DNA of 38,129 nt from a virus (Duplodnaviria; Heunggongvirae; Uroviricota; Caudoviricetes): IMG/VR virus record IMGVR_UViG_2627854098_000005; one strand, written 5' to 3'. Positions 1 to 36,888 of the stretch are shown here, one piece after another. The notes beneath the pieces were generated by a model, which saw only the letters and a program-made list of their open reading frames with translations, made no database searches and was not told the origin of the DNA. Each line of letters opens with the position of its first letter. The first letter of the stretch is position 1. Both the position numbers and the translations under genes were made by a program.

Positions 1-288
1 TCAATGGTTGGCGTCATTATCTTTTTCTCTTTCTGAACGTGAATATTGCGGTGGATGGTTCATCAGCTGTGGGGCAAGACGTTTTGCCACCTGAAGAATA
101 ACCACCACCGCAGCGGGAAGCATGAGCAAAACACCGAGAAAAATCATCAGAATCTGCACTTCTGGCCGAGAAAATGGCTCAGGTAGCGACAGGGAGTCGC
201 TTACCGACAGCAGCGCCACCGCCAGCAACATCATTCCGATAAATTCCAGTATCAACACGCTTTTAGGCAATTTACCGATCGCGCGCAT
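1..288 (-). CDS. ybjC: small inner-membrane protein YbjC (DUF1418), complete 95 aa
   Basis: Full ORF with stop at 1..3; hydrophobic 95-aa product matching recalled YbjC; divergent from grxA as in the E. coli chromosome. Confidence 0.75.
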   Translation of the reverse strand: MRAIGKLPKSVLILEFIGMMLLAVALLSVSDSLSLPEPFSRPEVQILMIFLGVLLMLPAAVVVILQVAKRLAPQLMNHPPQYSRSEREKDNDANH

Positions 289-447
289 ACGCTTCCCTCT
301 GCAAAGTGAGCCTTCAGTCTAAAACTTTTCACTGTATTGTGTTTAACAGTTATAGCTTTTATCAATTAATGCAACAGGTTAAACCTACTTTCAGCGAATA
401 CATTTTAGCGTGATCATTACAGGCATAAATCTATGAGGAGAGAAATA

Positions 448-705
448 ATGCAAACCGTTATTTTTGGTCGTCCGGGTTGCCCTTACTGTGTGCGTGCAAA
501 AGATCTGGCTGAGAAATTGAGCAATGAACGCGATGATTTCCAGTATCAGTATGTAGATATTCGTGCGGAAGGGATCACTAAAGAAGATCTACAACAAAAG
601 GCAGGTAAACCCGTAGAAACCGTGCCGCAGATTTTTGTCGATCAGCAACATATCGGCGGCTATACCGATTTTGCTGCATGGGCGAAAGAGAATCTGGACG
701 CCTGA
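448..705 (+). CDS. grxA: glutaredoxin 1
   Basis: Product MQTVIFGRPGCPYCV... with CPYC active site, 85 aa; ATG at 448 preferred over the upstream in-frame ATG at 433. Confidence 0.9.
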   Translation: MQTVIFGRPGCPYCVRAKDLAEKLSNERDDFQYQYVDIRAEGITKEDLQQKAGKPVETVPQIFVDQQHIGGYTDFAAWAKENLDA

Positions 706-1113
706 TCGTCTGACAAGCCCTCGCGTTGAGGGCTTTATTGATTTTTTTCTGTGCTGTGGTTTAAACAAACTACTGATAAATAAGAAACACAATGCCCCCA
801 GCGCACACCAGAACACCGCACTTAATAACCATGCCAGCTCTTGCCAGAATGAGCGCGTCGGTGAAAAAAACAGCCGTATAATGAGCATCGAACAGGGTGC
901 CGCCAGCATTGCGCCAAACAGAGGTTTCAGGACTTCTCTACGATGTGAAAAGAAGCTGGCAACTGCACCAGGAAGAATGAAAAATAGCAAACCGATTTCA
1001 GGATGCCCGGCAGCCCGAAAAGCGCCTTTCATGTGCGTCGCCAGAAAAAGACACACCACAATGAAGAGGACAAAACAGCAGATTGCCCCCGCCCAACGTT
1101 GTTTATGTTTCAC
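589..1113 (-). CDS. ybjM: inner membrane protein YbjM, with an apparent C-terminal read-through extension
   Basis: 174-aa ORF as read; the first ~123 aa are a hydrophobic YbjM-like protein, then the frame runs through the homopolymer at 742..748 and the grxA terminator and overlaps the grxA 3' end. Confidence 0.6.
   Translation of the reverse strand: MKHKQRWAGAICCFVLFIVVCLFLATHMKGAFRAAGHPEIGLLFFILPGAVASFFSHRREVLKPLFGAMLAAPCSMLIIRLFFSPTRSFWQELAWLLSAVFWCALGALCFLFISSLFKPQHRKKSIKPSTRGLVRRSGVQILFRPCSKIGIAADMLLIDKNLRHGFYGFTCLLL
715..748. terminator. rho-independent terminator downstream of grxA
   Basis: GC-rich hairpin aaGCCCTCgcgttGAGGGCtt followed by a T-run (7 T at 742..748). Confidence 0.6.
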
Positions 1114-1382
1114 TCGTTCCTCCTGACACTGCGTCTATCGAACACATTTTTCGCCAGTGTGGCGTTCAGTAAGATAAAGCCGCTTCGCATTCCATGCTAA
1201 TATAGGCCAACGCAATTCATATAGCCGTTGATACCTAATGTGATTACACTAGTAAAATATATTGTTACTTTACTATCTTTTAGGTGCGCTGAATGAATCT
1301 GCGCCCTGAATTCTGGTAAAAAACATTATCGTAAATTACCATTTCTTTCAACAGCTTACTAGTAAACAAGAAGTTAGCCTCC

Positions 1383-3068
1383 GTGAATATAAACGTCGCC
1401 GAATTGTTAAATGGGAATTACATTCTGTTATTATTTGTGGTCCTCGCGCTTGGGCTATGTCTCGGGAAATTACGACTTGGTTCGATCCAACTGGGTAATT
1501 CCATTGGCGTTTTAGTCGTATCGCTGTTATTAGGCCAACAACATTTCAGCATTAACACCGACGCGCTTAATCTTGGCTTTATGCTGTTTATTTTCTGCGT
1601 CGGGGTCGAAGCCGGACCGAACTTTTTTTCCATTTTTTTTCGCGATGGGAAAAATTACCTAATGTTAGCACTGGTGATGGTTGGCAGTGCGCTGGTGATC
1701 GCCTTAGGGTTAGGTAAGCTGTTTGGCTGGGATATTGGCCTGACGGCCGGTATGTTAGCTGGCTCTATGACGTCGACACCGGTTCTGGTCGGTGCTGGCG
1801 ATACACTGCGTCATTCCGGCATGGAAAGCAGGCAGCTCTCACTGGCACTGGATAATCTGAGCCTCGGGTATGCCTTAACCTATTTAATCGGTCTGGTGAG
1901 TTTGATTGTTGGTGCGCGTTACTTGCCGAAATTGCAGCATCAGGACTTACAGACCAGCGCCCAGCAAATCGCCCGCGAACGTGGCCTGGACACTGATGCC
2001 AACCGTAAGGTTTATTTACCGGTGATCCGCGCCTACCGCGTCGGCCCGGAGCTGGTGGCCTGGACCGACGGCAAAAATCTGCGTGAACTGGGTATTTATC
2101 GACAAACTGGCTGCTACATTGAACGTATTCGACGTAACGGGATTCTGGCGAATCCAGACGGTGATGCTGTGCTACAAATGGGCGATGAAATAGCGTTGGT
2201 AGGCTATCCCGACGCCCACGCACGACTCGATCCCAGCTTCCGTAACGGCAAAGAAGTTTTCGATCGTGACCTTCTCGACATGCGTATCGTCACTGAAGAA
2301 GTGGTCGTTAAAAACCATAACGCCGTGGGCAAACGTCTCGCACAACTGAAGTTGACCGATCACGGTTGCTTCCTTAACCGCGTCATTCGTAGCCAGATTG
2401 AGATGCCGATAGATGACAACGTCGTGCTTAACAAAGGTGACGTTTTACAAGTCAGCGGCGATGCCCGTCGCGTAAAAACCATCGCCGATCGCATCGGCTT
2501 TATCTCGATTCACAGCCAGGTCACTGACTTGCTGGCATTCTGCGCCTTCTTTGTTATTGGGCTGATGATCGGGATGATCACCTTCCAGTTCAGCACATTC
2601 AGTTTCGGCATGGGGAACGCTGCCGGGTTGTTATTCGCCGGAATTATGCTGGGATTTATGCGCGCTAACCACCCGACCTTCGGTTACATTCCGCAGGGTG
2701 CATTAAGCATGGTGAAAGAGTTCGGCTTAATGGTGTTTATGGCAGGCGTTGGTCTGAGCGCCGGTAGCGGTATTAATAACGGCCTGGGCGCGATTGGCGG
2801 TCAGATGTTGATTGCCGGATTGATTGTCAGTCTTGTGCCAGTGGTTATCTGTTTCTTGTTCGGTGCTTATGTATTGCGAATGAACCGCGCACTGTTGTTC
2901 GGCGCAATGATGGGCGCACGCACCTGCGCGCCGGCAATGGAGATCATCAGTGATACAGCTCGCAGTAACATCCCGGCGCTGGGCTATGCGGGCACCTATG
3001 CAATCGCCAACGTCCTGCTGACGCTGGCAGGGACAATCATCGTCATGGTATGGCCAGGATTAGGATAA
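1383..3068 (+). CDS. ybjL: putative AAE-family transporter YbjL with two internal TrkA-C/RCK_C-like domains
   Basis: 561-aa ORF from a GTG start; hydrophobic N- and C-terminal halves around a soluble central region; matches recalled YbjL. Confidence 0.85.
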
Positions 3069-3180
3069 AACTGAAGTTGCCCTGAAAATGAAATTTTTTT
3101 GCACAACCGCAGAACTTTTCCGCAGGGCATCAGTCTTAATTAGTGCCACTGCTTTTCTTTGATGTCCCCATTTTGTGGAG

Positions 3181-16521: not shown

Positions 16522-16551
16522 GAAATCAAAAGAAAATAGTGATTTTCAAAT

Positions 16552-16569
16552 TGTATGAAGGGTCTTACA
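16552..16569. promoter_or_regulatory. TGT-N12-ACA dyad, candidate late promoter element for the V-W-J-I-H-G operon
   Basis: TGTatgaagggtcttACA read directly in the short V / cargo-gene spacer. Confidence 0.4.
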
Positions 16570-16574
16570 ATCCA

Positions 16575-18407
16575 ATGAATTACAATGAAGAGCTAACCTC
16601 ATATCTTAATTATTTAGTGGATCTTGAAAAATCCCCTAATTTCGCAGTAATGATTGACGGCGAATGGGGAAGCGGGAAAACATGGTTTGTCCGTAAATTA
16701 ATGAATGAAGAATCACTAAAAGGGAAAGTTAAGCCATTAATGATCTCATTATATGGAATAAAATCCACCGAACAAATTGACGAAATAATTTTCAAGCAAA
16801 TGCATCCCTTCCTTTCATCTAAAGGCATGTTGCTTGCTGGCACACTAACTAAGGCACTAATTAAAGGCACACTTAAGATTGATTTAAGTGATTCATTCGT
16901 TACAAGTGTAGAGGGCTCCCCAGAACTACCCAACGTAAGCATTAAAGACTTTTACTACTCACCAGAAAACACCATATTGATATTTGATGATCTTGAACGC
17001 TGCGAATTAGATTGGAATTCTATATTTGGTTATATAAATAATTTCGTTGAAGAAAAAGAATGCAAGGTTTTGATTATCGCCAATGAGAGAGAAATATTAA
17101 ACCCCGCTAGAAATAAAAATCATGATGGTATTTATTTAGATGCAAAAGAAAAAGTTATAGGTATAACTTTCAAATATCAACCTCAACATTCTCACGCCTA
17201 CGAATATTTTCTAAAAAATATAACTAGCGAACTCAACACCATTCTGAACATAAAAAATATTGAGAGCTTACTCACTCTTTCAGAGTGTAATAACATTAGA
17301 TTAATTGAAAGGCAAATTTCTTTTTTTGAAAGAATATTCAAAATATTACCAGCACAGTTTCAGCAAAATTCAGATTTGACACTCAGATTATATCAATTAC
17401 ATTTTATACTCTATTTTGAATCTAATAAAATAAAACGAACCGTTTCTGACTTGTTAACATATAAAATAGATGATGATAATAAATACACATCCAATTTAAT
17501 TGAAAAATATGGTACAACTTATTTGTCAAATTTAATCTTAGACGAGGATACCTGGATCGATATAATTGACAATCAGAAAATCAATCAAGAAAAAATAATA
17601 TCTGAATTAATAACATTCGTCAGTGTTTCTAATAAAACAATTGAGCCATGGACACAACTTTGGAATTATGATCGATTAAAATACACAGAATTTGAGGAAA
17701 ATTACAATTCAACACTTCATACGCTTATTAATTTTGAAATATTGAACGAGCATGTTCTTAAGCATATTTACGGATTATTACTTCATTTATCCAGAGAACA
17801 TATAAAACCCATCAACGAACACTATTTAACAAACTTAGCCCACTCTGCTGTTGATATTTTAGCAGAAAAAGGAATGATACAAACTAGTTATGAAATTTTT
17901 GATGAAGACATTAAGGATGAGCGATGGAGAGGATTAACTTTTCATTGCAAAGAAACTAGGGAATTCAAGGAGCTTGTTAATTACATAGAACAAAAGAAAA
18001 ATGTATTAATTGCATATCAACTTAGCCAAGACGCTCAAAAGATATTCAAATTAATACAGTCCGGAAATCATGAATATTACGCACATCTAAATTTCAACAA
18101 CAAAGATATTTATTCATTTCACGACAAACCAGTTCTTTATTTTGGTGATGCTGAACAACTAACAAAAATACTGATAGACTCAACCGAGATGCATTTCTTT
18201 GGCTATGCTATAAAAAACCGATACAACAACACCCCTTATCTAAAAGAGCTTTCTGCAGAGCGTTTTTTCCACCGCGAGCTAATTAGAAAGCTAATTGAAA
18301 AGAAAACTCAAATAAACTCAAATATATTATCATTACAAATCGATGAGCTCATAAATGATTGTTTAACTCCCGCAATAGATAAATTAAAGCAAAGCATTGA
18401 AAATTAA
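16575..18407 (+). CDS. KAP-family P-loop NTPase, candidate phage-exclusion/abortive-infection protein
   Basis: Walker A GEWGSGKT and Walker B-like ILIFDDLER; AT-rich; opposite strand to the flanking late genes; ATG at 16575 preferred over the track GTG start at 16539 because the late promoter dyad lies between them. Confidence 0.7.
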   Translation: MNYNEELTSYLNYLVDLEKSPNFAVMIDGEWGSGKTWFVRKLMNEESLKGKVKPLMISLYGIKSTEQIDEIIFKQMHPFLSSKGMLLAGTLTKALIKGTLKIDLSDSFVTSVEGSPELPNVSIKDFYYSPENTILIFDDLERCELDWNSIFGYINNFVEEKECKVLIIANEREILNPARNKNHDGIYLDAKEKVIGITFKYQPQHSHAYEYFLKNITSELNTILNIKNIESLLTLSECNNIRLIERQISFFERIFKILPAQFQQNSDLTLRLYQLHFILYFESNKIKRTVSDLLTYKIDDDNKYTSNLIEKYGTTYLSNLILDEDTWIDIIDNQKINQEKIISELITFVSVSNKTIEPWTQLWNYDRLKYTEFEENYNSTLHTLINFEILNEHVLKHIYGLLLHLSREHIKPINEHYLTNLAHSAVDILAEKGMIQTSYEIFDEDIKDERWRGLTFHCKETREFKELVNYIEQKKNVLIAYQLSQDAQKIFKLIQSGNHEYYAHLNFNNKDIYSFHDKPVLYFGDAEQLTKILIDSTEMHFFGYAIKNRYNNTPYLKELSAERFFHRELIRKLIEKKTQINSNILSLQIDELINDCLTPAIDKLKQSIEN

Positions 18408-27195: not shown

Positions 27196-27220
27196 AATGG
27201 GCGCCTACATAGGCGCCATT
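27196..27220. terminator. hairpin between convergent Q and cargo ATPase gene, possible bidirectional terminator
   Basis: GGCGCC-tacata-GGCGCC stem-loop with flanking A/T; no strong U-tract. Confidence 0.35.
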
Positions 27221-27240
27221 ATCTATAATAAAGACATGAA

Positions 27241-28509
27241 TTAATTTGGCAACTCCAAATCATCCTTTAGATCTTTGATATCTTGATGTTGCAACCATAT
27301 TAGGAAGCCTTTATCAACAACATTCAGTTTCCTATTTGTTTGGTCATAATCCAAAATAATAGGCATTATATTTTTCTTTATTTGCAAAGACGCCGTTGAT
27401 TGTAACGACTGAGTAACATTACCCAGGTTTAACTTCTCCCCTCTTGGATGTACACTTTGTAATATTGCCCTTATATCTTTAAATTTCAAACCTAATTCAA
27501 GTTCACTAATGGTTGATGAAAGGACAGGATATAAAATCCATTTATGCATTTGAAGTTCAGTATCTTGAAATCCATCTGAAAAATTAATAAGGAAAGAATT
27601 GTAACGAGCCGATTGGTCATTAACAATTTTTGCAATGATATCCTTTCCATCCAAACCAGCTCCAATAGTTCTTTTTGTTTGCTGAGTCTCTGATATTCCG
27701 CATTCAATACACGCACGCCTACATGCTTCTTGCACTAAATAAATACTATTGAGACAGTGTGTTACTACATCTGCTTTGAAAGTTGGATCAAAATCAATGT
27801 TAAGGAGTAAACCTCCTTTATCAATTGCCATCTCCAGTTCAGAATCTTGCCATTTGTCTGCGTTAACAGAAATAATCCTGCCAGTTAAGTCACCATTGTA
27901 AACAATGAGCCGATTATCTTCTAGCCAAACTCCAACAATTACAAAAATAATGCTTGATGTTTCATGAAAGGCTTTTAATGCGATCGAAAAATCTCTTTGA
28001 GTTTCGAAAGGCATATAATGAAAATCCTCAAGAACGATAATCTTCTTGAAATTTATAGATTTTAAAGCCGCTATAACATCATTAACATCATCAACATCAA
28101 TTTCTAAAGGCGCGGTTACTTGTTCATGAGATTTCGTATCTTCGATCTCGCCTCCGGCACTCGCCACAAAACCCAAAATAGAAGTTTTTATTGATGCGAT
28201 TATTTTATTTTTCCCCGTAATACCTTTCTTGGTAGACTGAGTTATTTCGAATCCAGCTCTTTTTAAAATACTTGCATTCAATTCAGATACATCAGAACGA
28301 TTCGAACACTGCACCAAAATATAATCATCAGAATTAATACAGTGTTTTCTTACGCAAGTCTTACCCTGCTTTGAACTGCCGTAAATAACAATATGTTTCT
28401 TTGCTTGTAATTCCTGTTTAAGTTTGAAATCAACATCAGGTCTTTCAATGTAATTAAGTGGCAAATCTCTTGAGAGCCCAAAGATATCATTCGTATCAAA
28501 AATTTCCAT
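27241..28509 (-). CDS. P-loop ATPase (AAA-like), cargo gene of unknown function
   Basis: Walker A IVIYGSSKQGKT near the N-terminus and Walker B-like KKIIVLEDFH about 110 aa later; AT-rich; no resemblance to phage structural proteins. Confidence 0.65.
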   Translation of the reverse strand: MEIFDTNDIFGLSRDLPLNYIERPDVDFKLKQELQAKKHIVIYGSSKQGKTCVRKHCINSDDYILVQCSNRSDVSELNASILKRAGFEITQSTKKGITGKNKIIASIKTSILGFVASAGGEIEDTKSHEQVTAPLEIDVDDVNDVIAALKSINFKKIIVLEDFHYMPFETQRDFSIALKAFHETSSIIFVIVGVWLEDNRLIVYNGDLTGRIISVNADKWQDSELEMAIDKGGLLLNIDFDPTFKADVVTHCLNSIYLVQEACRRACIECGISETQQTKRTIGAGLDGKDIIAKIVNDQSARYNSFLINFSDGFQDTELQMHKWILYPVLSSTISELELGLKFKDIRAILQSVHPRGEKLNLGNVTQSLQSTASLQIKKNIMPIILDYDQTNRKLNVVDKGFLIWLQHQDIKDLKDDLELPN

Positions 28510-28624
28510 TTTAATATTCTCAACGTTCAGAATTTGCTACTAAACATATAATGCTCCGCGTTTTTTTGCAACTTGTCTCGAATATTTATATGAGATTGTT
28601 CTCATATAAATTAACCAGCGCGCG

Positions 28625-28650
28625 CTCGTATCCCCGCCACGCCTGCCCGC
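28625..28650. other. cos-like cohesive-end sequence (candidate packaging site)
   Basis: Reverse complement contains GGCGTGGCGGGGA, which matches my recollection of the start of the P2/186 19-nt cohesive end; lies in a GC-rich island inside an AT-rich spacer. Confidence 0.4.
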
Positions 28651-28913
28651 TTTATGTAGTTGTTTTCATGCACCTGCATGCTCTACGCAAAAGCCCGCCA
28701 GTTCTGGTGGGCCTTAGCAATAACGATCCTCAAACGATCATGCAATCTCATGCAGTATAGGCATGCACAACAACTTACCTTAAGAAAAAACATCTGATAT
28801 GCCCAACTGTTTCGTCTCTTTTCCAGTAGCTTGCTATGGCTTATCTTTAATGCAACTGTAATCGTGTATGAAGATACAATCCCTACCAATCATAAAAATG
28901 AGGAACACAAAGA

Positions 28914-29654
28914 ATGACTGTGCACAAGCTCTCTGGTGCGTTTTTCCACGATATGCAGGTTGAGTGGCCCTGCCCTAACTGCAATCAGAAAACCCTACAG
29001 ATCATTAAAGAAAGTTTCGTCTCGTATGACACACATGATACCCGAAAATTCCGCAGTGAAGATTGGTTTGAACTAGAAATGGATTCATCTATTTTCAGTT
29101 GCATGGCCCGCTGTTCAAGAATGCAATGTGGTGAAGTTGTGGCCTGTACTGGTAAGAGTGGATGGGAACAAGGTTGGGATGAAGAAAGAAATGATATTGA
29201 GTACTATCAATGGCACAGACCTTTCACCTTTTACCCATCACTGCATCCTTTCGAAATACCTGAAAAATGCCCAGAAGAAATTACCGAACCGCTTGAAGCC
29301 TCATTTTCCATTTTCCTAATACAGCCTGGCGCAGCAGCAAACCTAATTCGAATTTCAGTTGAAAGAATGCTAACCGCTATGGATGTAGCTGAACGTAATG
29401 ATAATGGCAAACGCATAACTCTACACCACCGTTTAGGGATGCTACCTGAATTATACGGATCGTTTTCAAGACCTCTTATGGCAATTAAATTTTTAGGAAA
29501 TGCCGGAAGCCATACCTACGATGAAGTAAAAGTCAAAGACATTGAGGATGCTTTTGAGATTATGGAGTACGTCGTCAATGACTTGTTCTCCGGTCGCAAA
29601 GAATCTGTCGAAGTATTGACGAAACGATTAAGTGAAAAATTCAAAGAAAACTGA
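28914..29654 (+). CDS. zinc-ribbon protein with uncharacterised C-terminal domain, cargo gene
   Basis: N-terminal CPNC ... CMARC/CSRMQC cysteine pairs; C-terminal region with LGNAGSH motif; AT-rich. Confidence 0.6.
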   Translation: MTVHKLSGAFFHDMQVEWPCPNCNQKTLQIIKESFVSYDTHDTRKFRSEDWFELEMDSSIFSCMARCSRMQCGEVVACTGKSGWEQGWDEERNDIEYYQWHRPFTFYPSLHPFEIPEKCPEEITEPLEASFSIFLIQPGAAANLIRISVERMLTAMDVAERNDNGKRITLHHRLGMLPELYGSFSRPLMAIKFLGNAGSHTYDEVKVKDIEDAFEIMEYVVNDLFSGRKESVEVLTKRLSEKFKEN

Positions 29655-29782
29655 TCAAGATACAGGTGGTTCACTTTTACGGGCAAAATAACCGCTTTAC
29701 TTTTGAACCACCTAACACCTCGCTACAATCGTTGTTCAGCCTTGCAGATGGTAAAAGCTAGTTTTATCATCCGCAACGTTCT

Positions 29783-30016
29783 CTAATGCAGCCAGCTGTC
29801 GTCTTCCCACACCTTCTGCATAATTTTCATCACTTGTTTTCTTTCTTCGTCCAGTTGCAGTCCGGTCAGTTCCACACCGTTAGAGCTACCTTTGCGGATA
29901 CGAATTACCGTTTTTGGATACAGGGGGCGCAGATTGCGGTAAAGCTCGGATTCAAGGGCGTCCAGGATAGACTGGCTAATCTTCTGCTCTTTATCGATCA
30001 TTATTTCAATGCGCAT
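29783..30016 (-). CDS. DinI-family protein (SOS-induced RecA modulator family)
   Basis: 77-aa product MRIEIMIDKEQ...WEDDSWLH resembling E. coli DinI; start at the ATG at 30016, preceded by GAGGTGA. Confidence 0.7.
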   Translation of the reverse strand: MRIEIMIDKEQKISQSILDALESELYRNLRPLYPKTVIRIRKGSSNGVELTGLQLDEERKQVMKIMQKVWEDDSWLH

Positions 30017-30026
30017 AAAAGTCACC

Positions 30027-30215
30027 TCAACTGATGACATCCATTGAGCGGTTGTATTCGTGGGTTCTGATTTTTGCCATGAGTTCATCTGTTAGTTCAG
30101 AAACCCACTGCAAAGCCAGCCCCTTCTCTTCATCACTACACTCACTAGCCGCTACAAGCTTAAGAAAAAAATCAATGCGCTGGAGCTTCAAAGACTCCAA
30201 AAAATAGTCCTGCAT
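30027..30215 (-). CDS. small hypothetical protein, first gene of the LexA-box operon
   Basis: 62-aa ORF ending 10 nt before the DinI-like start; LexA box about 40 nt upstream. Confidence 0.5.
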   Translation of the reverse strand: MQDYFLESLKLQRIDFFLKLVAASECSDEEKGLALQWVSELTDELMAKIRTHEYNRSMDVIS

Positions 30216-30256
30216 TTTTCCTCCTATGACACCACAAGCAATACTGTATACATAAC

Positions 30257-30276
30257 CACTGTTTATATTTACAGTA
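30257..30276. promoter_or_regulatory. LexA operator (SOS box)
   Basis: cACTGTttatatttACAGta, a perfect CTGT-N8-ACAG dyad with AT-rich spacer. Confidence 0.7.
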
Positions 30277-30367
30277 TATAATAATCTTACTGATGTAAAA
30301 CGTTTTTTACGTTCATCAGCCTGATATGCCTGGTATTATTAAGAGCACGAATTGTTAATCAGCGTAA

Positions 30368-32782
30368 TTAATACATGTTCCGCCATTTATCATCCTCCTG
30401 CAGACGCTGGTTCCGATAGAAGATACGCAGGCCTGCTCCTGACGGAATACTGCCACCGCGAAGGAGCAACTCGACCTCTTTCTCGCTGCCATCAAATCCT
30501 CTGGACTTCAATTCATAGACAAGCTGCTGTCGCTGATGGTCTGTAATTCGCTGTTTGTAGTCTTTACGCCGTTTCGGTTTCACCAGGCGTAACCTTGCTG
30601 CCAGTTCCCGGCGATCTTTTTTGCTCATACTGTGCAGGTAATCGTGCAACTCCTTGTCATTCATACGGGTAATATCCGTTCTGGAGTCCCCATCAGCTGA
30701 TTTGTCTTTCCCTTGTTGGTTCAAATTTTCAGCAAGGGGACAGTTATTGCCACGAGTCCAAGGGGCGCAAGTGCCCTGGTCGGCTGCCGCCTCCTGAACG
30801 TCAACGGCCTTACGAACCATTTTCCACTTCACTGCATGAGTGCAGATCTTGCCCTCTGCAATGGGTGACCAGATGCCATAAATACGAATACCGTGATCGC
30901 CATAGGCGGTTGGCTCTTCGTTGATTTCATAAGCGGTTCTGATGAGGTGATATTTGCGGGGAACCAGTACGCCGCCCTGCTTCATGATGTAGGTGGCAAA
31001 ACAACCAGCATCAGCAGCAGCCAGGATGGCATCAAGGCGCGGGTTATCCAGTACCGGCGCACCTGCTTTTTTGTCACCCTGTTGCCTTGCCGCCTGACCA
31101 GCCAGCAATCGCAGTTCACGGTAAGCCTGACGCCCCGGAATGCCAAAGAAGCGGAATTGCTGAACACGATGCAGAGACGCCCAGGCATTAACGTATTCAG
31201 CGTTATCACGCAGGGATTTACCCGTTTCCTTACTGATCTCGCCAGCCAGACCACGCCCGTCAATATTCTTACTGATATATTTCGCAATGTAGCTTGTCGG
31301 CGTTCCTTTGCGCGGGTTTATCAGCTCAGACTTAAAGCGTGGCCCCGTGTTATTGCCCAGCTCCTCGCGGTCTTCACGGATGGCAAACTTACGCAACAAT
31401 GCAGTAATGGCGCGGCGCTCTTTTTTGCGCATGAAACACAACAGGTGCCAGTGAACTGTGCCGTCATGATGCGGCTCAGCCACCCGCACGCCATACCAGC
31501 GCAACCCGGCTTTGTGCATAGCCTTACGAAATGCAGCAAACATGCCGACCAGATAATCGCTGCTTTGTCTTACTGTCGCGTTGGTCCAGGTCGGGTTTGG
31601 CCTGCCGTTATTTAGCGTGGAATGGAAACGTGACGGACAGGTGATGGTGTAGAAAACGGCGCAGTCACCACGCATTTCCGCGATAAGCTCCAGGCCTTTA
31701 ACACAGGCCATCATCTCATTGCGGCGATGCGCCGGGTTGCTGCTGCTGGCGTTTACCACATCCTCCATGTTCAGCGTGTCGCCGTCTTCGTTCACCAGTT
31801 CATGAGAACGGAAAAACTCCAGCGACTTACGGCGCTGCTCACGTTTATGCATCACGGCTTCATAGCTGACATAGGGAGATGCTTTTTTGCTGACCAGGCT
31901 GACAGCACGCAACTGCTCTTCCCGCAATTCGCAACGCATCTTCCATAATTTCCGATACCACCAGTCGGCGCACAGCATACGCGCCAGCGAACCCGGAATG
32001 AGTTCATAGGGCACAGGTTTGCGGCGGTTTCTTTTCCGGCGGAGTTGCTCAAACGCAGGCGGTATGACATCCAGTCGCAGGGTTTCTGCAGCCACCTTTT
32101 CCCATGTCTTGCGGATTTCTTCTGGCTTAACATCATCGGAGGCGTACAAATCACCACAAGCGGCATCAAGACACATGCTCATATGCGCAGCGACAAGGGT
32201 AGACAGGCGTTTCACCTGATCCTGACTCATTTCAGGCAGGATCAGCAGACCGTCCAGCCCTTCATGGCTTGCCATAAAACGAAAAGATGCAGATAGCTGG
32301 CTGTCGCGTACATGCTCCAGTCGTTCCAGACATGGCTTAATCGTCTCACGCAAATAGCGGGAATAAGCCTTTGGCCTGCCCAGGCTGCTGAAATATTCAA
32401 TACGTTGCATCAGCGGCTTGCTGATATGGGAAGGCTGGGCGTTGACGTCGGCCAGAATGACCATGTCCGGATTAAAACGCTGCTGCTCATGCGCCATCTT
32501 TGCCCGGCTAATGAGCTTATCCTGCTCCATTTCGCGTTGGACAGGATCACGGGATTCATTAAAGAAATAACGCTCCCAGACCTGATCACTCAGTGCCTCG
32601 CGGCGCAGTTGTTCCTGCTCGTTATCAGTAGCGTACAGAGTGATCAGGTTTGAAAGCGCAGAAACCGGCGCAACTTCCGCCGGGTCCAGATAAGGGTTAA
32701 TGGCCTTTTTCGGGCTGTTCCATGAGAATGCTGCGGCGACCTCGTTAAAGCCGCTGCAGTTGTTCATATCAGCATGGCTCAT
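30368..32782 (-). CDS. A: replication initiation endonuclease A (rolling-circle)
   Basis: 804-aa product at the P2 gpA / 186 A position. Confidence 0.85.
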
Positions 32783-36105: not shown

Positions 36106-36681
36106 GTGACCATGAATTTGGAGAAAGGCGGACGAGGCGCTATAGAGCGCATGGTAGAAGCTTATGGATTCAAAACTCGACAGGCGTTGTGCGATCATTT
36201 AGGAATCTCTAAAAGTACACTCGCCACACGCTACATGCGTGACTCATTCCCAGCAGAATGGGTAATCCAGTGCGCCCTTGAAACGGGCACCTCGCTTAAT
36301 TGGCTCACAACCGGACATGGTTCAAAGCAAACTTCAGGTAATACAAATACTATGGAAGTTGCTAAATATGTATTATCTGATGGTGCCTTGCGTGAAGACG
36401 GTTTTTATATTTTTGATAAGGGATTTCTACCCTCTACGTTTAAAAAACCTTTTGTCATCACAGATAACAATTCTGAATTTATTTGTGATAAAGAATTTGA
36501 TGATATACGTGATGGTAAATGGGTAATAAGTATTGATGGCGAAGTAACGATCCGTGACATTACTCGTTTACCCGGTGGAAGAATCTTCGTCGAGGGTGGA
36601 AACAGAGCCTTCGAATGTAAGATAGAAGACATTGAAATAATTGGTAAAATTATAAGTTTAACAGTCAAGTATGTTAAATAG
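36106..36681 (+). CDS. cI: CI immunity repressor, 186-type
   Basis: 191-aa product with ...AYGF...QCALETGTSLNWLTTGHG... resembling recalled 186 CI. Confidence 0.7.
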   Translation: MTMNLEKGGRGAIERMVEAYGFKTRQALCDHLGISKSTLATRYMRDSFPAEWVIQCALETGTSLNWLTTGHGSKQTSGNTNTMEVAKYVLSDGALREDGFYIFDKGFLPSTFKKPFVITDNNSEFICDKEFDDIRDGKWVISIDGEVTIRDITRLPGGRIFVEGGNRAFECKIEDIEIIGKIISLTVKYVK

Positions 36682-36696
36682 TACCGGGAGGAAACT

Positions 36697-36888
36697 ATGC
36701 TTGGTAAGGTATTTTTTGTGGTTTTGTCATGTTCTTTGTTATTAAACCCACTAACTACCTATGCTAGAAATTATCCCTGCTCAGGGAAAAAGGGAGGTGT
36801 TTCTCACTGTACCTCAGATGGCAAATTCGTTTGCAATGATGGAACTATTAGTAAATCCAAAAAAATCTGTACTAAAAACTCACGATAA
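36697..36888 (+). CDS. small secreted cysteine-rich protein, candidate lysogenic-conversion moron
   Basis: 63 aa with signal peptide [23 protein letters not shown] and mature part containing Cys residues and Lys-rich; GGGAGGA ribosome-binding site; between cI and int. Confidence 0.5.

Follow-up and report, generated by a model that had tools for sequence, protein, structure and literature searches.

The window, by which we mean the whole stretch of 38,129 nucleotides analyzed here (IMG/VR record IMGVR_UViG_2627854098_000005), very probably carries the SOS-induction operon, tumA-tumB, of a Fels-2/186-type P2-family prophage that sits next to ybjL in E. coli. The operon is a compact unit on the minus strand, which consists of a candidate promoter, a LexA operator, an ORF of 62 aa, an ORF of 77 aa and a hairpin (Table 1). 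The features named in a preliminary description of this DNA are all present at the positions given there, on the minus strand, and the description had proposed that they may form the SOS-induction module of the prophage. This proposal is supported by the homology to Tum, which is found at the profile level, and by a deletion precedent in the prophage of E. coli HS.

The operon is located at the end of the early region, 3' of the replication gene A. Directly upstream of it lies a gpA-like ORF (P2 gpA-type replication gene), and this order, gpA followed by the operon, is common to 186, PSP3, Fels-2, the HS prophage and the window. The gene 3' of the operon is convergent, and the operon therefore comprises two genes. 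In place of a fused tum gene there are two adjacent and co-directional ORFs, as in Fels-2 and PSP3; instead of encoding a single fused polypeptide of ~146 aa, the reading frames are separated by the TGA stop codon of the first ORF and a spacer of 10 nt. The integration site of the prophage is found beside ybjL, and positions 27200-30400 are 100% identical to several E. coli chromosomes, including that of APEC IMT5155. Part or all of this 3.2-kb region was matched by 1,261 of 5,426 complete E. coli genomes, and the region is also common among Klebsiella and Salmonella prophages.

Table 1. Features of the tumA-tumB operon and of its surroundings in the window
Feature	Position	Strand	Basis or remark
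gpA-like ORF	30368-32782	-	P2 gpA-type replication gene
Candidate -35 hexamer TTTACA, tum promoter (p95 analogue)	30294-30299	-	read from the sequence
Candidate -10 hexamer TACTGT, inside LexA box 1	30271-30276	-	analogy with 186 p95
LexA box 1 (distal) TACTGTAAATATAAACAGTG	30257-30276	-	perfect CTGT-N8-ACAG core 30259-30274
LexA box 2 (proximal) CAGTGGTTATGTATACAGTA	30242-30261	-	core GTGG-N8-ACAG 30244-30259
tumA, 62-aa Tum-type antirepressor (putative)	30027-30215	-	strong RBS AGGAGG 30220-30225
tumB, 77-aa DinI-family protein	29783-30016	-	RBS GAGG 30025-30028
Hairpin	29742-29776	-	just 3' of the tumB stop codon; RNA fold
cI, 186-type immunity repressor, presumed TumA target	36106-36681	+	Pfam

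The hairpin behind tumB folds with ~-13 to -17 kcal/mol (z -1.9) and is followed by no U tract. Similarity to 813R9 and 500465-1 continues across it, whereas the similarity to Fels-2 stops at the tumB stop codon. As it lies at the position of t95a in 186, it is a possible terminator of the operon. A second hairpin (30021-30038), which spans the tumA stop codon and the tumB RBS, was considered as a translational-coupling or attenuation element and was rejected, as its z-score is only -0.85, 43 of 200 shuffled sequences fold equally well and it is conserved in neither SEN8 nor PSP3.

That the first ORF is a real gene follows from its alleles: the 72 found at DNA level in 161 Fels-2-type loci encode only 11 proteins, and pN/pS is 0.07. 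In RefSeq and in most phage records it is annotated as 'hypothetical protein', and sequence searches of Pfam, NCBIfam, PADLOC and PDB with the 62-aa protein gave nothing meaningful. The preliminary description had suggested an alignment with 186 Tum. With pairwise BLASTP the 62-aa protein could be aligned neither to 186 Tum nor to PSP3 TumA, but similarity is present at the profile level. The N-terminal 70 aa of 186 Tum match phrog_698, the family of the 62-aa ORF itself, with an E-value of 5.9e-6 (residues 6-44 versus profile positions 6-44), phrog_8554 is matched by both proteins (2.4e-8 and 3.4e-12), and the 62-aa ORF matches phrog_1993, the family of PSP3 TumA, with 2e-3. When alignments built from IMG/VR loci were compared using hhalign, the Fels-2 type matched the ESSI2 type (1.4e-18), and both the ESSI2 type (1.6e-6) and the PSP3 type (1.8e-5) matched the N-terminus of 186 Tum. 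The direct comparison of the Fels-2 type with the 186 N-terminus gave P 6e-4 and a probability of 28%, with residues 3-43 aligned to residues 3-43. In a gapless MAFFT alignment the identity is 23-29%, Cys26 and Ala34 are invariant and the hydrophobic pattern is shared.

Given the profile and intermediate-sequence matches, and since the first ORF also shares its genomic position and its regulatory context with tum, we accept it as a divergent TumA; it would be remotely homologous, and in register, to the N-terminal half of 186 Tum (residues ~3-44). In the AlphaFold2 model from the single sequence (pLDDT 91.6), two helices, H2-23 and H28-61, form a hairpin whose loop contains the conserved Cys. 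A Foldseek search of this model against BFVD gave no match at E <= 0.001, and the matches above this value were generic helical ones.

The second ORF had been described as a DinI-family ORF which follows after 10 nt and has its own ribosome-binding site, and this holds in all points; the RBS overlaps the TGA stop codon of tumA. Residues 14-76 of TumB match the Pfam family DinI (PF06183) with an E-value of 1.3e-22 (80.4 bits, cut-off 24.2). The alignment with E. coli DinI, which had also been suggested, gave a match to the solved structure 1GHH (3.6e-6, residues 1-75), which extends over the full length and includes the acidic W-E-D/W C-terminal helix. With the NCBIfam equivalog of DinI (NF007893), TumB reaches 42 bits at a cut-off of 111, and it is therefore a phage paralogue and not an orthologue of the chromosomal DinI. 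TumB is 98.7% identical to STM2726.1 of Fels-2, 76.6% to PSP3 TumB and 41% to the C-terminal half of 186 Tum, its counterpart in this phage, which is annotated as Tum95.5. The statement in the preliminary description that 186 Tum contains a DinI-like part is right. From its family membership and from the annotation of Tum95.5, TumB is probably a modulator that acts on RecA filaments.

An experimental precedent comes from the E. coli HS prophage, which occupies the same site near ybjL, encodes a TumA with 61 of 62 identical residues and has the same promoter and operator. For this prophage the Phollow preprint describes an in-frame 'delta-tum' deletion, in which the start codon is fused to the stop codon (PMC11195241). 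One of the junction primers matches positions 30213-30235 of the window with one mismatch and ends in the ATG of the first ORF, and the other matches positions 30007-30029 exactly and covers the TGA of this ORF, the spacer and the first tumB codons. Since the primers bracket the 62-aa ORF exactly, the gene deleted in HS is the orthologue of the first ORF and tumB was left intact. The delta-tum and lexA(Ind-) mutations each abolish lysis upon mitomycin C treatment and the formation of virion foci, and the host SOS reporter still fires in delta-tum (PMC11195241). The mitomycin C test of an operon deletion, as proposed in the preliminary description, has therefore effectively been done on a sibling prophage. 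It was shown in HS that the 98%-identical gene, in a prophage with the same CI type as the window, is needed for SOS induction. The deletion demonstrates that TumA is necessary; whether TumB is dispensable lies outside its reach.

The idea that the antirepressor is split over two small proteins stands for the Tum polypeptide, which is indeed split, but probably not for its function, which the evidence places in the first gene alone, with a DinI-like modulator in the second. The alternative is that TumA and TumB are both needed and come together again as a Tum-like complex by which CI is inactivated, which would agree with 186, where both parts form one polypeptide of 146 aa, and with the distance of 10 nt between the ORFs, by which they are co-expressed. 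The architecture of the relatives in IMG/VR points in both directions. The genes stay adjacent in 158 of the 161 Fels-2-type loci (window and SEN8 queries), which are split into 62 + 77 aa, and 79 of 80 loci of the 186 type are fused, mostly with 146 aa. However, the PSP3 type is mixed, with 50 split loci and 30 of 80 that have TumA only, and all 81 loci of the ESSI2 type have TumA only, in the sense that a search with the TumB of the window revealed no DinI partner. In both types, TumA-only loci with a LexA box exist. The DinI module is therefore separable, and this favours TumA as the seat of antirepression. Further points speak for the same assignment: in PSP3 it is the upstream gene by itself to which antirepressor activity has been ascribed (personal communication cited in PMC3121763), and the Gifsy prophages carry the dinI homologue as a gene apart from that of the antirepressor, with the order reversed (PMC3121763). 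Moreover, 186 also makes the DinI part separately, as the internally initiated 77-aa Tum95.5, which is annotated as modulator of SOS induction. The HS experiment took out tumA only and is therefore compatible with a joint action of both proteins, yet on the whole we consider such a reassembled complex unlikely.

The presumed target of TumA is encoded in the window as well. The CI protein is of the 186 type, with the domains Phage_CI_repr (PF07022, residues 11-74) and Phage_CI_C (PF16452, residues 85-183), and is 96% identical to CI of the HS prophage; an S24 peptidase domain was not reported in it by the Pfam search. This bears on a further explanation, by which the operon is an SOS-modulating moron, i.e., the DinI-like protein would be the effector and act on host RecA, the 62-aa ORF would encode an unrelated small protein and the prophage would be induced by another route. 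Such a reading could draw on the 62-aa protein having neither a curated Pfam or NCBIfam family nor a solved structure or a significant fold match, and on its public annotation as hypothetical. It is nevertheless very improbable in view of the homology that profiles reveal to the N-terminal part of Tum, the strong purifying selection on the 62-aa ORF, the loss of induction in HS while the DinI-like gene was intact, and a CI of the 186 type in which no S24 autocleavage domain was reported.

The assignment as SOS-induction operon is also borne out by its operator. The perfect SOS box named in the preliminary description is the only CTGT-N8-ACAG in the window, and it lies 43 nt from the ATG of tumA, where about 40 nt had been given. 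Box 1 agrees with the consensus TACTGTATATATATACAGTA at 17 of 20 positions (counted on the sequence). It overlaps by one base, the G at 30259, with a second LexA box, so that a double operator is formed. This double overlapping operator is a feature that was absent from the preliminary description. In the alignment with 186 and PSP3, which have one LexA box each, this box pairs with box 2, and box 1 is the extra one. The bare 16-mer is not above chance, as 0.46 matches are expected per window and at least one match was found in 41 of 100 shuffles, whereas the 35-nt double-box pattern TACTGT-N8-ACAGTGG-N8-ACAGTA gave no match in 100 shuffles. A perfect CTGT-N8-ACAG, counted when present within 150 nt upstream of the gene, precedes Tum/TumA in 370 of 398 related IMG/VR loci, which were collected with five different Tum/TumA queries and include five divergent Tum types. 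Of the 80 loci in which TumA is identical, 75 have a perfect box. The double box is found in 143 of 161 Fels-2-type loci, with varying spacers, and in none of 237 loci of the 186, PSP3 and ESSI2 types.

Box 1 covers the candidate -10 hexamer of the tum promoter directly 5' of the gene, as in 186, where the LexA site begins with the six bases annotated as the -10 signal of p95. The hexamer TACTGT is the same as the one annotated for p95, and the spacer between TTTACA and TACTGT is 17 nt. For the candidate -35, GTTTTACAT is conserved among the unique Fels-2-type operators; an alternative -10 is TATACT at 30273-30278 with a spacer of 15 nt. A generic sigma-70 scan of the region called no promoter, because the candidate -10 agrees with TATAAT at only 3 of 6 positions. 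The promoter is therefore named as a candidate by its likeness to 186 p95. A fortuitous SOS box in AT-rich intergenic DNA, with an operon that is constitutive or reached by read-through from the early operon, is the least probable explanation of all, as the expected frequency of the 16-mer and the lack of a called consensus promoter are outweighed by the 35-nt pattern, by the box at the same place across the 370 loci, by 186 p95 as a documented LexA-controlled promoter and by the block of induction through lexA(Ind-) in the HS sibling.

When the 54-nt operator region was compared with plasmids by BLAST, mostly small mobilizable plasmids were matched. The three matches that were inspected lie just 5' of the genes for colicin Y, a pore-forming colicin and pesticin; all three operators can be aligned with the 35-nt operator of the window column for column. 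This comparison was run on the plasmid sequences, since PMC2994835 gives HI values for the colicin boxes without sequences. The colicin double boxes bind two LexA dimers, which leads to very tight repression (PMC2994835). The arrangement of the boxes in the window is the same, but in colicins it controls toxin genes and here a phage antirepressor. By this analogy the second LexA box probably gives tighter repression and later induction than the single box of 186. For box 2 we infer this role from its conservation and from the likeness to the colicin operators.

To locate the part of CI that TumA might recognize, identities of both proteins were compared. In 80 IMG/VR loci with a TumA 100% identical to that of the window, CI ranges from ~37% to 100% identity overall; the N-terminal domain stays at 68-100%, whereas the C-terminal domain falls to 25-48% at the low end. 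In a set of 297 unique TumA/CI pairs, those with at least 95% identical TumA have a 5th percentile of ~60% for the identity of the CI N-terminal domain, while the C-terminal domain reaches 27%. For pairs with less than 30% identical TumA the N-terminal domain is 33-51% and the C-terminal domain 22-36% identical. Upon clustering of the CI N-terminal domains, the Fels-2 type (101 of 102) and the ESSI2 type (53 of 64) fall together in one cluster, the PSP3 type (66 of 67) in a second and the 186 type (60 of 64) in a third. Tum clade and CI N-terminal cluster thus correspond almost one-to-one, with few loci breaking the pattern. The C-terminal domains, on the other hand, form 44 clusters, and the Fels-2-type TumA is spread across many of them.

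The TumA type therefore tracks the N-terminal and not the hypervariable C-terminal domain of CI, and for this reason the co-variation suggests that TumA recognizes the N-terminal DNA-binding domain; this evidence is a correlation that includes lineage effects, and the N-terminal domain of CI is generally more conserved than the C-terminal one. A target in the N-terminal domain would fit the annotation of 186 Tum, according to which it inhibits DNA binding by CI, and the finding that 186 Tum works by sequestration of CI (PMC7708051).

We propose the following course of induction. Without DNA damage, LexA would occupy the double overlapping operator across the -10 hexamer and keep the operon silent, as judged from the sequence and from the colicin and 186 precedents. 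Upon damage, RecA-mediated cleavage of LexA would allow transcription of the operon. The TumA helical hairpin would then bind the 186-type CI, most likely in a stoichiometric manner and at the N-terminal helix-turn-helix domain to which the co-variation points, and would end the repression of the lytic promoter, so that lytic growth follows. TumB, translated from its own RBS, would probably act on RecA filaments and not on CI, and would tune the strength or duration of the SOS signal.

As a more tentative extension, for which we see somewhat less than an even chance, the Fels-2-type TumA may be a broad-specificity antirepressor of a shared CI N-terminal HTH that is able to cross-induce co-resident Fels-2-type prophages, and the double LexA operator may at the same time set a later threshold, at higher damage, than in the 186 and PSP3 modules. 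To our knowledge neither the broad specificity of TumA nor a threshold set by a double operator has been described for this phage group. Dozens of CIs share this N-terminal HTH, while their C-terminal oligomerization domains are otherwise 25-48% identical.

The 62-aa 'hypothetical protein' can now be named TumA, a Tum-type antirepressor. The assignment shows the route by which genotoxic antibiotics induce these prophages, many of which carry defence cargo, and the side observations lead to simple hypotheses on the timing of induction and on cross-talk between prophages.

Among the known phages, Salmonella phage Fels-2 is the closest, with ~97% DNA identity over the segment that contains STM2728 and STM2726.1. 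STM2728, annotated as hypothetical, is 98.4% identical to TumA of the window, and STM2726.1 is annotated as a DinI-family protein similar to PSP3 TumB. Fels-2 and HS have gpA, the LexA operator, the 62-aa ORF and the 77-aa DinI-like ORF in the same order as the window. However, CI of Fels-2 is only 38% identical overall, with 71% in the N-terminal and 26% in the C-terminal domain. The genes 3' of tumB differ as well: Fels-2 has a gene for 243 aa with the length, position and strand of 186 orf97, whereas the window has a convergent DUF4145 gene and a candidate defence gene (PDC-S59). Lethality of a lexA-null mutation due to Fels-2 has been reported in literature that is cited in PMC3121763, and the same paper describes that tum of Fels-2 and PSP3 is split by a stop codon.

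PSP3 has the split organization of the window, with 60 + 77 aa. Its tumA is annotated as 'similar to 5' end 186 tum; UV induction of prophage' and its tumB as 'similar to dinI and 3' end of 186 tum'. It differs in the sequence type of TumA (phrog_1993), in the single LexA box and the gap of 3 nt between the genes, compared with a double box and 10 nt in the window, and in CI, which has 286 aa and a duplicated N-terminal HTH domain. Phage 186 shares with the window the LexA-repressed promoter (p95) 3' of gene A. In contrast to the split genes of the window, its tum encodes a fused protein of 146 aa with internal starts, its operator has a single LexA box and orf97 lies downstream. The N-terminal half of 186 Tum is only ~20% identical to TumA, and the N-terminal domain of CI only 40%.

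The module is thus already known and adds one more example of the split tum system, for which a description and experimental support exist; through the work of Lemire et al. the split tum is the established description of this phage group. The double operator of the colicin type and the coupling of TumA to the CI N-terminal domain are modest new observations, which refine this known system.

The CI repressor of the prophage, encoded in the window, belongs to the 186-type immunity repressors. It was compared with the products of the cI genes of loci L009-L413. Its N-terminal HTH domain is conserved across the Fels-2-type prophages, with 68-100% identity. The C-terminal oligomerisation domain is hypervariable and falls into 44 clusters at 55% identity when all loci analysed are considered, and the C-terminal domains of the Fels-2-type prophages are scattered over many of these clusters. 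Were immunity specificity located mainly in the DNA-binding domain, the opposite of this combination of a conserved HTH domain and a hypervariable C-terminal domain would be expected. In phage PSP3 the cI gene (L090:107-967) encodes a product of 286 aa, in which the N-terminal HTH domain seems to be present twice in tandem, followed by a single C-terminal domain.

A homologue of TumA, the Tum-type antirepressor, is also present in the ESSI2-type phages (L093:9001-9213, which is ESSI2_ev129, and L254-L333), where it has a length of 61-72 aa and its gene is preceded by one near-consensus LexA box. When the DinI-like TumB of the window was used as query, no DinI-like partner was detected in L093 and L254-L333. 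In ESSI2_ev129 the 3' end of the TumA-homologue gene is overlapped by a convergent gene annotated as 'transcriptional regulator'. In the window a short AT-rich inverted repeat (AACGT-AAAAA-ACGTT), followed by TTTT, is located between the stop codon of the replication gene gpA and the candidate -35 element of the tum promoter. This repeat might restrict how much transcription of the early operon continues into tumA; it was not called in the terminator scan.

Features of the window outside the tum operon
Feature	Position	Strand	Remarks
Host genes, left prophage flank	1-3100		YbjM-family protein and 561-aa Asp-Al_Ex/TrkA_C permease (ybjL-like)
622-aa KAP-family P-loop NTPase	16539-18407	+	match to PADLOC candidate PDC-S49, 1e-134
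422-aa AAA-like protein	27241-28509	-	match to PADLOC defence candidate PDC-S59, 4.8e-72
246-aa DUF4145 protein	28914-29654	+	weak PD-T7-4 match, 1.6e-5
Inverted repeat	30297-30314	-	between gpA stop codon and candidate tum -35
CI repressor	36106-36681	+	186-type
63-aa ORF	36697-36888	+	between cI and int

The KAP NTPase gene is inserted among genes for tail and baseplate, lies on the strand opposite to theirs, and seems to mark a second site for cargo or defence in this prophage. For the 63-aa ORF no family match was found; its product may be secreted, given its hydrophobic N-terminus and the presence of several cysteines. The prophage of E. coli HS carries a small hypothetical gene at the matching position.

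IMG/VR contig UViG_2778261247_000013 is the same as the window. The interval from tumB to the portal gene, in which the AAA-like and DUF4145 proteins are encoded, contains variable cargo among the relatives. At the place of this cargo Fels-2, HS and 813R9 all carry other genes than the window. The window shares its integration neighbourhood, with the host genes of the left flank, with the prophages of E. coli HS and vB_EcoM-813R9.
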